A stretch of DNA of 64,000 bases from Verrucomicrobiota bacterium (GTDB lineage: Bacteria; Verrucomicrobiota; Verrucomicrobiia; Limisphaerales; AAA164-E04): NCBI GenBank assembly GCA_047947115.1, contig CP170459.1, forward strand, positions 4,736,001 through 4,800,000, in the 5' to 3' direction. The notes beneath the pieces are model-generated. The model saw only the letters and a list, made by a program, of their open reading frames with translations, searched no databases and was not told where the DNA came from. The position numbers and the translations under genes were made by a program. Positions 58,939 to 64,000 of the stretch are shown piece by piece (the first letter of the stretch is position 1; each line of letters starts with the position of its first letter).

Positions 58939-59597
58939 ATGTTGGCAAAAATTGATGCGGCTTCGGTTCGTGGAATCGAAGCATTTAAAGTAGAAGTGGA
59001 AGTCCACGTCGGTTACAGCGACTCCTGTGTCGTGATCGTCGGACTTCCGGACGCCGCCGTGCGCGAATCTCGCGACCGGGTCGGATCAGCCATGTCGAAC
59101 AGCGGATACCGCTTTCCTCAAGGTCGCACCACCATCAACCTCGCACCGGCCGACCTAAAAAAAGAAGGTCCCAGCTTTGATCTCCCCATCGCAATGGGCA
59201 TCCTTGCCGCAAGCGAGCAGATGGAACCCTGTTTACTGACCCGCTACATGCTCGTGGGGGAACTGGCACTGACGGGTGCCGTTCGACCGGTAAAGGGTAT
59301 TCTGCCCATCGCTCTCCGGGCCAAAGCCGAAGGCAAACGTGGCATCATCGTGCCAAGCGAAAACGCCCACGAAGCGGCCGTGGTCCAGGGCATTGAAGTC
59401 ATCCCCGTTCAAAACCTGCGCGAAGCGGTTCATTTTTTGGAGGAAGAAGTACCCATATCCCCGTGTCGAGTGGATCTCGATTCGCTTCTGGGCAAAACCA
59501 TCGATCCCGCATTGGATTTCAGCGATGTCAAAGGCCAGGAATCCGTCAAACGAGCGCTGGAAATCGCCGCAGCCGGCGGACACAACGTATTGTTATT
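58939..59597 (+). pseudogene. comM: 5' part of comM/YifB (Mg-chelatase-like AAA+ ATPase), interrupted by an insertion
   Basis: VGLPDAAVRESRDRV, INLAPADLKKEGPSFDLPIA, DVKGQESVKRALEIAAAGGHNVLL; the expected GPPGxGK Walker A is replaced by unrelated sequence with a stop at 59641-59643. Confidence 0.92.
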
Positions 59598-59601
59598 GAG
59601 G

Positions 59602-59629
59602 TTGCAAATACCTTTTGGAGTGGTATGCT
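59602..59629 (+). promoter_or_regulatory. Candidate sigma-70 promoter of the integrase (leaderless mRNA)
   Basis: TTGCAA-16 nt-TATGCT with extended TGn; the ATG begins 7 nt after the -10 box; no SD. Confidence 0.5.
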
Positions 59630-59635
59630 TCACAA

Positions 59636-61291
59636 ATGCCTAAAGCTTACTCATATATCAGATTTTCTTCCCCCGAACAACACCGTGGCGATTCCTTGAG
59701 AAGACAACGTGCTGCTGCGGAAAATTACATTTCTGAACACCCTGAGTTAAAGCTTCATCTGGACGAGGATGTCTCAATGCTAGATTCCGGAATTAGTGCT
59801 TACAATCAGGACAATGTGTCAAAAGGAGCACTTGGCCGGTTTATGGACACTATGAGAGAGGGTAAAATAGAAAAAGGATCTTATCTACTGATTGAATCCC
59901 TAGATAGAATGAGTCGAGCGGAACCTTACAAAAGTGCACTGCTGCTCTTAGAAATAGTAAAGGCAGGTATCAAAGTTGTCACCTTGTTCGATGAAAAGAT
60001 TTACTCTGAGAATACATTGAATTTCGATAATTTGATCCTTGCCATCTGCACATTCAAAAGAGCTCATGATGAGTCTGAAACAAAATCCAAAAGAATCAAA
60101 TCCGTATGGTCAAGGAAACGCGGTTATGATTCGGTAATTACGAAACGATGTCCTCATTGGTTGGAATTCGACGAAAACGAGGGAGCTTTTAAACCTATTC
60201 CTGAAAGGGTCGAGTTGTTGGAAACGATTTTTCAAAGATTCTGCAGTGGTGAGGGCAAAGACAAAATTGCACGAAGTCTGAATAAAGCTGGAGAATCGCC
60301 ATGGGGAAGAGGAAAAGGGTGGCATGCTTCTTACATTCAAAAGATAATTCGTAACAGATCGGTTATAGGAGAATTTCAACCTCATGAATTATTTGATGGA
60401 AAAAGGATTCCTGTTGGTGAAATTAAATCAGGATATTATCCGGCAGTCATTTCCTCTCAACTATTTGAAAAAGCACAACAGCGCTTAAGTTCCTCCAAGC
60501 ATCAGAAAGGAAAACGTTCAGAAAATTTTACAAATCTATTCTCGGGTTTGGTTTACAGCGGCTTGACAGGATCATCAGTGATCTATGTTTCAAAGGGATC
60601 TAAAAAAACACAGAAATACTTGGTCTCCAGTGACGCAAAATCAGGCCTTGGTGAAAAATATGTCAGTTGGAGATATGATGCTTTTGAAATCTCGTTCTTA
60701 ACTAGCCTCCGCGAGTTGGATTTAAACTCCCTGCTCCCACCTCTTGAGCAAGCTGATAATAAATCTACGGAAGAAATAGCCAAAATTAACCAGAATCTTG
60801 CCTGTATTGAGAAAAGTCTAAAAAATATCCAAGATGGAATTGAGCGCGGCTCCAAAAAAGTCACAACACTCGTAAACCGAATGGCTGAACTGGAAGAAGA
60901 ACGAGCAATAATTTTAGAGAATCTGCAAGTTTTGCAAGATGAAATCGAAACACAAAATGCCATAAAAGCGACAGTAACAAATGCATCAATAGACATTAAA
61001 AGCCTAATCGAAGACCGTTTCAAGCCGGATATTCGCAAAAAACTATATGTTGAAATCCATAATTTAGTTGGAAAAATCGAGATTTTTTTTGAAAACAGCC
61101 CTTTTACAGCATCGGACGGCCTTGCATCGGAACATCCAGATCTACCACAACTTATTGCTGGAAGGTGTTTTGTGATTCATTTCAAATCCTTTAATTACTC
61201 CAAAGCCTGTTTTCCATCAAAAAAGGACCCAGCAATAGTACCAGTAATAATTGATGATTTGCGAGTTTCTGAAAAATTAAGAGCAGAATAA
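59636..61291 (+). CDS. Large serine recombinase (integrase)
   Basis: AYSYIRFSS (catalytic Ser), DSLRRQ, IESLDRMSR, ESETKSKR; recombinase domain IARSLNKAG..WHASYIQKII..YYPAVIS; C-terminal coiled coil. Confidence 0.95.
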   Translation: MPKAYSYIRFSSPEQHRGDSLRRQRAAAENYISEHPELKLHLDEDVSMLDSGISAYNQDNVSKGALGRFMDTMREGKIEKGSYLLIESLDRMSRAEPYKSALLLLEIVKAGIKVVTLFDEKIYSENTLNFDNLILAICTFKRAHDESETKSKRIKSVWSRKRGYDSVITKRCPHWLEFDENEGAFKPIPERVELLETIFQRFCSGEGKDKIARSLNKAGESPWGRGKGWHASYIQKIIRNRSVIGEFQPHELFDGKRIPVGEIKSGYYPAVISSQLFEKAQQRLSSSKHQKGKRSENFTNLFSGLVYSGLTGSSVIYVSKGSKKTQKYLVSSDAKSGLGEKYVSWRYDAFEISFLTSLRELDLNSLLPPLEQADNKSTEEIAKINQNLACIEKSLKNIQDGIERGSKKVTTLVNRMAELEEERAIILENLQVLQDEIETQNAIKATVTNASIDIKSLIEDRFKPDIRKKLYVEIHNLVGKIEIFFENSPFTASDGLASEHPDLPQLIAGRCFVIHFKSFNYSKACFPSKKDPAIVPVIIDDLRVSEKLRAE

Positions 61292-62339: not shown

Positions 62340-62445
62340 AAAAAAAGCCGCCCCAGCGGGACGGCAAGAGGATACCACTTGGGATACCCTACGTAATCGA
62401 AATACTTTGTTGTGAAAAGCATTTCAAGGGATAGCTTGATACACT
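62340..62445 (-). ncRNA. Putative tracrRNA
   Basis: Minus strand reads anti-repeat-like AGTGTATCAAGCTATCCCTTGAAATGCTTTTCACAAC, then AAA, nexus-like GTA-TTTCGAT-TAC-GT, hairpin AGGGTATC/GGTATCCT, and terminator GCCGTCCC/GGGGCGGC + T7; immediately upstream of cas9. Confidence 0.75.
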
Positions 62446-62451
62446 GGAGAC

Positions 62452-62480
62452 ACTCTATACATAATTGGAAAGAACGTCAA
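62452..62480 (-). promoter_or_regulatory. Candidate sigma-70 promoter for the tracrRNA
   Basis: TTGACG (62480-62475)-17 nt-TAGAGT (62457-62452); predicted +1 near 62445, at the anti-repeat boundary. Confidence 0.6.
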
Positions 62481-62486
62481 TAACAT

Positions 62487-64000
62487 ATGCAAAATAAAAT
62501 CTTAGGTTTAGATTTAGGTACAACATCTGTTGGCTGGGCTCTGATTCAAACGGGTGATGATGATGGAAAGATTCTCGGTGGAGGAGTACGGATTTTTCAA
62601 GGTGTCACAGAAGAGAAAACAGGGGCATTAAAAAACCAAAAACGGCGCGAAAAACGCGCCCAAAGGCGTAATATCCAAAGAAGGAGCAGGAGAAAAACTG
62701 CGCTTAAAAAAGCACTTACTGTTGCAGGTCTGTTGCCAAATGACGTGCTTGATCCGCATAAAGCTCCAAAAGTTTTAAACCAAATCCATCCTGACCCTTA
62801 TCTTCTCCGATCAAAAGCCCTTTCCACTAAACTTTCAGATTACGAATTGGGGCGTGCCATTTTAAACCTTGGCATGCGCAGGGGCTTTTTAAGCAATCGT
62901 AAAGCAGGAAATGATACGGACAGCAAACATGTCCAGCCGGCCATCGATAAACTGACTCAAGAGATAGAAGACACAGGATGCGCCTCCTTGGGGGATTACC
63001 TTGCGAATCAGCCAACAAAGAGAGGCAGGTATACCCATAGATCAATGTTTGAAAAAGAACTGAATTCCATCTGGGCGGCTCAAAGTCAGCACAACCCAAA
63101 GTTAACTTCTGAATTAAAATCAAAAATTGAACATTACCTGCTATTTCAAAATCCATTAAAAATTCAAAAATTTTTGGTAGGACAATGTGCTCTAGAGACA
63201 AGCAAGAAACGAGCGGCAAAGTGGCAGCCTATAGCGCAACGCTTCAGGATTTGGCAAGACGTCAGCCGAATTAGATTTACTCATACTGGGATGCCACTCG
63301 ATTGGGCTCAACAAAAGAAGCTGGTAGATGCATTGGAAAGTAAACCTAAGCTGTCATGGAAAGCTGTTAGAAAATTAATTGAATTGCCAGATGACACCAA
63401 ATTTAACCTAGAGGAAAGTGGAGCACTCAAGGAACTCAAAGGTAACGACACTAACGTCAAACTAACCAAAGCCCTTTCAAATTTCAACGAATCGCTTTCC
63501 CCTGAGAAGAAATCTAAAATTCTCGATTGGCTCGATACATCAGATACTGATGAATTTTTAATAAGGAAATTGAAAAAAGGTTTTAATTTCGATGAAAAAA
63601 CAATAACTGCCCTGACCAAGTGCAAATTGGCTTCAGGATACCTCCACCTGAGCGTGAAGGCCTGCAACAAAATAGTTGATGCATTTGAAACGTCCAAATT
63701 ACCTCTCAGCTACAGGGAGGCGGCGGAAAAAGCCGGTTATAACCTGAACGAGTTGAAAGATAGCGAAAATTTTCCTAATCGCCTGCCACTGCCGCCTAAA
63801 CTTAGAAATCCTACGGTCGAGAAGACTCTCTCCGAAACGCGCAAGGTCGTAAATGCAATCATTCGAAAATTTGGCAAACCAGATAGAATTCATCTAGAAA
63901 TTGCTCGGGACTTAAAAAATCCTAAGCGGGTTCGAGAAGAAATTCACAAACACAACAGGGAACAGGAAAAACTTCGTGAAAACGCCAAAAAAGTCCTTGA
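62487..64000 (+). CDS. cas9: CRISPR-associated endonuclease Cas9, type II-C-like (first 504 codons; runs off the window, so absent from the ORF track)
   Basis: Manual translation without stops: MQNKILGLDLGTTSVGWA (RuvC-I, D9), GVRIF, Arg-rich bridge helix NQKRREKRAQRRNIQRRSRRK, DPYLLRSKAL, RRGFLSNRK, FQNPLK, GQCALE, RNPTVEKTLSETRKVVNAIIRKFGKPDRIHLEIARDL (RuvC-II, E471). Confidence 0.96.
   Translation, partial: MQNKILGLDLGTTSVGWALIQTGDDDGKILGGGVRIFQGVTEEKTGALKNQKRREKRAQRRNIQRRSRRKTALKKALTVAGLLPNDVLDPHKAPKVLNQIHPDPYLLRSKALSTKLSDYELGRAILNLGMRRGFLSNRKAGNDTDSKHVQPAIDKLTQEIEDTGCASLGDYLANQPTKRGRYTHRSMFEKELNSIWAAQSQHNPKLTSELKSKIEHYLLFQNPLKIQKFLVGQCALETSKKRAAKWQPIAQRFRIWQDVSRIRFTHTGMPLDWAQQKKLVDALESKPKLSWKAVRKLIELPDDTKFNLEESGALKELKGNDTNVKLTKALSNFNESLSPEKKSKILDWLDTSDTDEFLIRKLKKGFNFDEKTITALTKCKLASGYLHLSVKACNKIVDAFETSKLPLSYREAAEKAGYNLNELKDSENFPNRLPLPPKLRNPTVEKTLSETRKVVNAIIRKFGKPDRIHLEIARDLKNPKRVREEIHKHNREQEKLRENAKKVL

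Follow-up and report, generated by a model that had tools for sequence, protein, structure and literature searches.

We report a complete type II-C CRISPR-Cas9 locus, with a Cas9 of 995 amino acids, on a mobile island that interrupts the comM gene of a Verrucomicrobiota bacterium. The intact locus probably protects the bacterium from tailed phages by RNA-guided immunity. What we observe directly is the gene content, the intact cas9 frame, the catalytic residues, the repeat:anti-repeat pairing, the ends of the island, its empty site and the spacer matches to phages. The genome is a single contig of 6.08 Mb, and the window, that is, the whole stretch of 64,000 nucleotides that was analyzed, covers its positions 4736001-4800000. 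Parts of the locus past the window edge are given in L001 coordinates, to which 58000 is added to obtain the window-equivalent position. Features are listed in Table 1.

Table 1. Features of the island's left end and of the CRISPR-Cas9 locus (window positions unless prefixed)
Feature	Position	Strand	Remarks
yifB/comM 5' half	58939..59643	+	ends just before Walker A; stop codon inside island
attL core, 5 bp	59590..59594	+	repeated as attR at genome 4835837-4835841
Large serine recombinase, 551 aa	59636..61291	+	PF00239 and PF07508; likely island integrase
Small serine recombinase/resolvase, 226 aa	61374..62054	+	PF00239
Predicted tracrRNA, 106 nt	62340..62445	-	37-nt anti-repeat, nexus-like hairpin, second hairpin, terminator hairpin with U-tract
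Candidate sigma70-like promoter, cas9	62436..62465	+	10/12 matches; -35 box within anti-repeat DNA; consensus match only
Candidate sigma70-like promoter, tracrRNA	62452..62480	-	9/12 matches, 17-nt spacing; consensus match only
cas9	62487..64000	+	first 504 of 995 codons; whole gene at genome 4798487-4801474 (L001:4487-7474)
cas1	L001:7452-8336	+	overlaps cas9 stop; TIGR03639 cas1_NMENI, 279 bits (cut-off 120)
cas2	L001:8321-8665	+	TIGR01573; PF09827
CRISPR array	L001:8713-9278	crRNA probably on -	9 identical 36-nt repeats, 8 spacers of 30-31 nt
Spacer 6	L001:9081-9110	-	30/30 in a non-array X1 contig; 29/30 in IMG/VR contig L043, 28/30 in L042
Spacer 7	L001:9147-9176	-	30/30 in a second non-array X1 contig

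The open frame that the initial annotation had followed from its ATG to the window edge is real and covers 504 codons there. It carries on for another 1,474 nt beyond the edge without an internal stop, up to genome position 4801474, which makes a gene of 2,988 nt that encodes 995 amino acids. The annotation had rightly pointed out that the ORF list omits this gene; the omission arises because the window cuts the gene, which is listed as a 3'-open frame when open ends are permitted, and has no biological meaning. Residues 5-986 of the protein match the Cas9 model TIGR01865 with 635 bits (cut-off 100, E=3e-190), which excludes a chance match. The protein has the split RuvC domain and inserted HNH domain of Cas9, with matches to PF13395, PF18541 and PF18470 and a fold match to Nme1Cas9. 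Against the Cas9d model NF049971 it reaches 146 bits, below the cut-off of 375, and is thus not of type II-D; by inspection of the sequence, no CxxC zinc-ribbon pair occurs in the REC lobe (residues 1-470). An AlphaFold model based on an alignment of 116 sequences has a pLDDT of 87 and a pTM of 0.66; a first model based on 10 sequences (pLDDT 57) was discarded. The top PDB fold matches of the predicted structure are Nme1Cas9 and ThermoCas9 (E about 1e-50, ~25% identity).

The follow-up outlined in the initial annotation (gene recovery, Cas9 HMMs, phylogeny and structure prediction) gave an intact Cas9 with a predicted Nme1Cas9-like fold. Of the outcomes named there as contradicting a compact Cas9, none was found: the downstream part holds no stop or frameshift, the HNH and RuvC-III residues are in place, and the length is far from 1200 aa. 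The anticipated 1000-1100 aa was correct as to compactness and slightly too high as a figure. The short REC lobe put forward together with it holds in part: the protein is 87 aa shorter than Nme1Cas9, and only about 26 of these are saved in the REC half, ahead of RuvC-II. What is saved downstream of RuvC-II includes about 38 aa in one gap behind RuvC-III, with the remainder at the termini and elsewhere (estimated from alignment offsets).

The RuvC-I residue D9 (LGLDLG) and the RuvC-II residue E471 (IHLEIAR) had been placed correctly and align with the RuvC residues of Nme1Cas9. With H691 and D694 they make up the complete RuvC D-E-H-D catalytic set, and the HNH residues are E558, H559, N573 and N582. 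Conservation was counted in an alignment of the best 120 of 4,167 homologs, our own sequence included. D9 is kept in 118 of these sequences, the other two having gaps, and E471, H559, N573, N582, H690, H691 and D694 are kept in all 120.

The gene order is cas9, cas1, cas2 and array, the latter beginning 48 nt after cas2. No csn2 or cas4 gene is present in the ORF list between the resolvase and the array; the locus thus lacks the csn2 gene of a II-A (SaCas9-like) system. A cas9-cas1-cas2 set without further genes is described as that of type II-C (PMC12477760), and repeats of 36 nt with spacers of about 30 nt are likewise those of II-C loci. Together with the TIGR01865 score and the Neisseria-type cas1, this gene set upholds the type II-C class first proposed for the protein. 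Elsewhere in the genome, BLAST at up to 15% divergence finds a single further repeat-like stretch, located upstream of cas9. Every repeat carries at its 3' end the motif TGnTAnnnT, which we take to be an extended -10-like motif. Transcription of crRNAs from promoters within repeats is reported for Neisseria and Campylobacter (PMC5965381, PMC12477760), and the motif may reflect the same arrangement here.

A search for a degenerate terminal repeat after repeat 9 gave at best 16 of 36 positions, which was not accepted. The stretch right after the last repeat (L001:9279-9310) contains short blocks in common with the repeat, in the same order, and was accepted neither as a repeat nor as a spacer. 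Five of the eight spacers (L001:8749-9242, crRNA sense) start with C at their PAM-distal end, too few for judgement. A 38-nt match between the AT-rich leader and contigs of sequencing runs X20 and X4, with 7 differences, was considered unrelated.

A tracrRNA was expected to be identifiable alongside cas9, and cofolding and terminator prediction indeed point to a 106-nt unit lying antisense upstream of the gene. Its predicted anti-repeat pairs with the whole minus-strand repeat, leaving two small internal loops (duplex of -55 kcal/mol by cofold), its terminator occupies 62365-62347 on the tracrRNA strand, and its predicted fold has a z-score of -3.45. Rfam provided no family for this candidate, its two weak matches being far below gathering scores. 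A scan for sigma70-like promoters found 4 sites compared with 1.7 in shuffled sequences, and a start about 7 nt downstream of the candidate tracrRNA promoter would fall on the first base of the anti-repeat. The candidate promoters of the tracrRNA and of cas9 overlap and point away from each other, and expression of the two may be coupled. Read on the plus strand (window 62409-62465), the DNA of the anti-repeat closes with the extended -10-like motif that is also found at the end of every repeat.

The whole locus is carried by an island. From 59.6 kb in the window, GC content drops from about 0.53 to 0.38-0.48 over about 40 kb. The yifB/comM gene is interrupted at this point, and its AAA+ (3') half resumes at L003:1837 onward, 40,247 bp later. 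This distance is the length of the island. Joining its outer sides restores the reading frame of congeners, and joining its inner ends produces a dyad symmetry at 17 of 25 positions, centered on the first two core bases. Seven congeners were examined, and in all six with a match the gene reads through the junction, one of them being later cut by a contig end. Furthermore, the empty site itself is found in a 15-kb contig of run X2 from a near-identical strain, which shows 1 difference in 1,594 nt and runs straight into the far flank, as well as in a contig of run X20. A recombinase at one end, a short core, a symmetric attP, a restorable gene and an empty site together identify a serine-recombinase island.

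Other cargo includes an SNase-family nuclease, surface proteins with Ig repeats and the M, S and EcoEI-like R genes of a type I restriction-modification system (L002:11630-17202). Several large surface proteins of Ig-repeat, LamG and lectin-like types occupy L001:11666-20000 and L002:1-8265; two have near-duplicate C-terminal halves of several hundred residues, with a third partial copy, possibly a product of recombinational shuffling. The right end of the island contributes an in-frame ATG, preceded by a purine-rich stretch and located 13 codons upstream of the attR core (L003:1795-2712, genome 4835795-4836712). A protein of 305 aa comprising the AAA+ half of ComM could still be produced from it, although this ATG may be there by chance. 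An ORF of 469 aa at the same end (L003:42-1451) has no Pfam or PHROG match; two of its motifs recall what we take to be motifs A and C of family A DNA polymerases.

We compared the locus with 6 of 20 listed sequencing runs. Spacers 6 and 7 each match perfectly a contig of one metagenome, run X1 (Table 1), and the two contigs carry no repeats; matches of this kind are expected by chance at 5e-8. A scan of IMG/VR with a single 18-nt piece of spacer 6 yielded two contigs, L042 and L043. L042 carries head-protease, major-head and tape-measure genes, downstream of which a LamG-domain gene encoding 607 aa has the protospacer at its 3' end; L043 has weaker matches to virion proteins, and its protospacer lies in a homologous gene end adjoining virion-type genes. 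Judging from these neighbors, the target of spacer 6 is tailed-phage DNA. The two contigs have in common a module formed by this gene end and a small gene (L042:8198-10327, L043:9708-10585), in otherwise different sets of virion genes. The module is targeted by spacer 6 and by a spacer from run X20, and its presence in both contigs suggests a mobile host-recognition module. L042 also contains two tandem major-head-protein paralogs, both of phrog_283 (L042:1264-3040).

Six of the eight spacers gave no target in the searches run. Blastn of the array against INPHARED phages and PLSDB plasmids returned only matches with E of 2-7, treated as chance, and no self-target was found outside the array at up to 6 mismatches, the best having 7-8 (spacers shifted by one base). 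An 88% match to the array in one of 400 genomes of the order (G218) was rejected, as no spacer had fewer than 12 mismatches to L045. Runs X1 and X20 hold repeat-spacer-repeat contigs with the same repeat and other spacers, suggesting spacer turnover. One X20 spacer, which extends over the beginning of the next phage gene, has 19 nt in common with the DNA that adjoins the target of spacer 6; a sister array thus appears to target the same phage family. Run X20 is an RNA library available as contigs only, which cannot show transcription. One array contig of this run, at a depth of 76, has a new spacer adjoining one that resembles spacer 4 in part (7 differences over 61 nt, repeat included). Run X5 gave no match to the locus, which is not proof of absence, and in run X3 most of the array was uncovered, with no spacer match among the matches listed.

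On the expected PAM side, A3, T6 and A8 are common to both perfect sites, and positions 2 and 7 are purines in each, whereas the other flank has none of 8 positions in common. Using these two sites and the reading of positions 2, 3, 5 and 6 by Cme2Cas9 as a model, we may propose a PAM of about NRANWT, read at positions 2-3 and 5-6, as a hypothesis only, since a pair of sites is not enough (agreement at 3 of 8 positions has P=0.32 by chance) and the mismatched sites in L042 and L043 have A, not T, at position 6.

By analogy with Neisseria and Campylobacter, minus-strand promoters within the repeats would drive the crRNAs, which would base-pair with the tracrRNA, perhaps be trimmed by the host RNase III, a gene for which is present in the genome, and load Cas9. 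The loaded enzyme would cut double-stranded DNA 3 bp from the PAM, HNH cleaving the target strand and RuvC the other, and Cas1-Cas2, aided by Cas9, would add spacers.

We may also hypothesize that the locus is silent or barely used cargo, with spacers collected in an earlier host, and that the bacterium is defended by a system of its own. A second array of 40 repeats of 29 nt and 39 spacers of 32 nt is indeed present at genome 4517273-4519680, with genes extending beside it to about 4523000 (cas1 and Cas7/Cas5-like ORFs); by the look of its repeats and genes we take it to be type I-E-like. Compared with it, an array of 8 spacers is short; Cas9 is found in none of 21 genomes of family relatives; and the GC content of the island is low (0.38-0.48, against 0.51). 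None of the 39 type I-E-like spacers matches L042 or L043 beyond 14 nt, and these phages are thus not independently tied to the host; the same spacers match nothing in the island or genome beyond 14-17 nt. However, all nine repeats are identical and the genes unbroken, the perfect protospacers occur in run X1 together with near-identical island pieces and host flank, and arrays with the same repeat and other spacers exist in both X1 and X20. Idle cargo thus seems unlikely to us, and we favor an immune system in use.

Nor do we give much credit to a defect in the nuclease. At the first metal ligand of HNH our protein has Glu (E558) where every PDB Cas9 compared (Nme1, Hpa and Geo/Thermo) has Asp, and this Glu might weaken target-strand cutting, leaving a nickase or a slow cutter. 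Yet Glu is the majority residue, with 111 of the 120 aligned sequences against 9 with Asp, next to H559, N573 and N582, which never vary; we read Glu558 as a variant of the clade and not as damage. In addition, EH motifs are common among natural Cas9s (112 matches for three motifs in supplement file 9 of PMC7606464), and Cme2Cas9, clade-like by eye over a comparison that did not extend to its HNH stretch, is reported there to cleave in vitro. A weakened HNH is therefore quite improbable. A service to the island itself, in which Cas9 would guide integration, exclude rival elements or repress a promoter instead of fighting phages, is brought to mind by the position of cas9 beside two recombinases at the left end and by the overlap of its predicted promoter with anti-repeat DNA. 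The att sites are nonetheless of the ordinary serine-recombinase type, with a 5-bp core, no spacer matches the genome or island outside the array, and it is phage DNA that a spacer was found to target; cas1 and cas2 are retained and the nuclease residues intact, so that such a role is hardly credible beside phage defense.

The homolog search scored 7,996 candidates, of which 4,167 had E<=0.001 and the best 120 were taken. The closest among the matches listed are nine proteins of 991-999 aa with 56-63% identity; the label Verrucomicrobia bacterium is attached to one of them, and the cluster of another contains members with TARA ocean names. The remaining homologs of the best 120 are 35-43% identical. 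A FastTree phylogeny was built from 58 sequences (10 close, 22 subsampled homologs and 26 ORFs from genome loci; L037, a partial sequence, was dropped). Our Cas9 and its nine close homologs form one clade with support 1.0 and a long stem, and most Cas9s from the phylum of the host branch elsewhere. No closely related locus was found in genomes, metagenomes or viral contigs, and one locus reaches 35% identity (L005). Cas9s only distantly related to ours are encoded by 3 of the 400 genomes surveyed in the order and by 25 of the 400 surveyed in the phylum, the best of them scoring 625 bits, compared with 1,818 for the protein against itself. In the literature searched, we found neither a tested member of the sub-clade (nearest relatives at 56-63% identity) nor a report of a compact II-C Cas9 with Verrucomicrobia.

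The initial annotation saw here a candidate small editor. This remains a fair description, except for any suggestion of rarity, because compactness is normal in the clade: the 116 aligned sequences longer than 950 aa from the best 120 measure 972-1,073 aa (median 999), 59 of them being under 1,000 aa, and by this comparison the size of the protein is ordinary. Typical II-C enzymes are described as having 900-1,100 aa (bioRxiv 10.64898/2026.08.17.745178), and one survey, the source of CoCas9, kept 436 clustered orthologs of 950-1,100 aa (PMC11043407). Hundreds of orthologs of the same size exist.

A bolder hypothesis is that this Cas9 and its nine close, probably marine relatives represent a putative lineage of sub-1,000-aa enzymes with a Glu-type HNH and an A/T-rich PAM near NRANWT, whose cutting is efficient at low temperature or in mammalian cells and which pass from species to species as defense cargo of comM-targeting islands. 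We hold this combination to be rather doubtful. If true, the lineage would open target sites missed by the Cme2, Cj, Sa and Nme enzymes, and the 2,988-nt gene with a tracrRNA of about 100 nt would fit a single AAV. As biology, the locus is an ordinary but well-documented case of phage defense on a mobile island, with mapped att sites, an empty site and a phage target. As a tool, it offers a compact candidate Cas9 with a predicted tracrRNA and a PAM hypothesis, the value of which hangs wholly on activity and PAM. With protospacers, a predicted tracrRNA and att sites in hand, the locus is cheap to test.

In the PDB, the Nme1, Geo, Thermo and HpaCas9 group gives the best matches, with E 6e-74 for sequence and E 6e-51 for fold. 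These enzymes have the same domain order and a cas9-cas1-cas2 operon with a Neisseria-type cas1. Ours differs from them by an identity of about 25%, a length shorter by 60-92 aa and a Glu in place of Asp in HNH, and its PAM-interacting end barely aligns with theirs by sequence. Compact II-C enzymes of the same size class include CjCas9, presumably 984 aa long, CoCas9 (1,004 aa) and EHCas9 (1,070 aa). All three are distant in sequence; the match to the CjCas9 structure covers the N-terminal half (E 1e-33). These three have been tested in cells, whereas the present Cas9 is a candidate. For EHCas9, a locus of the same design is described, with the tracrRNA upstream (PMC10281378). Cas9d (II-D) and Cas9c2 (II-C2) overlap in size range, with 600-1,050 aa, and are described as carrying zinc-ribbon motifs in the REC lobe (PMC9755519), unlike our protein, which has no CxxC pair there.

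The nearest tested relative that we found appears to be Cme2Cas9, from a compost metagenome (clade IX, PAM-domain group 29), an enzyme of 1,008 aa with the PAM NAGNGC and activity at about 30-55 C (Gasiunas et al. 2020, PMC7606464). The comparison was made by eye on the sequences given in that report. The 36-nt Cme2 repeat agrees with ours at 22 of 36 bases, among them all of the last 6 and 16 of the first 19; the modules of the Cme2 tracrRNA follow the same order as in our predicted one, with a similar second hairpin; and the N-terminal 400 aa of the protein follow the consensus of our homolog alignment. Judged by its N-terminus, Cme2Cas9 is absent from the best 120 homologs (at least 35% identity), and it probably scores below that set. 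Its guide orientation agrees with ours, supporting the strand assignment of crRNA and tracrRNA, while its PAM differs from the NRANWT hinted at here.

As for the island, a serine-recombinase comM island carrying Cas9 was not reported in the limited literature searched. The closest parallel comes from Acinetobacter, where comM is described as interrupted by mobile elements that often carry CBASS or Zorya defense systems (PMC11472951). Those islands resemble ours in their comM target and their defense cargo, and ours differs from them in its large serine recombinase integrase and its Cas9 cargo.
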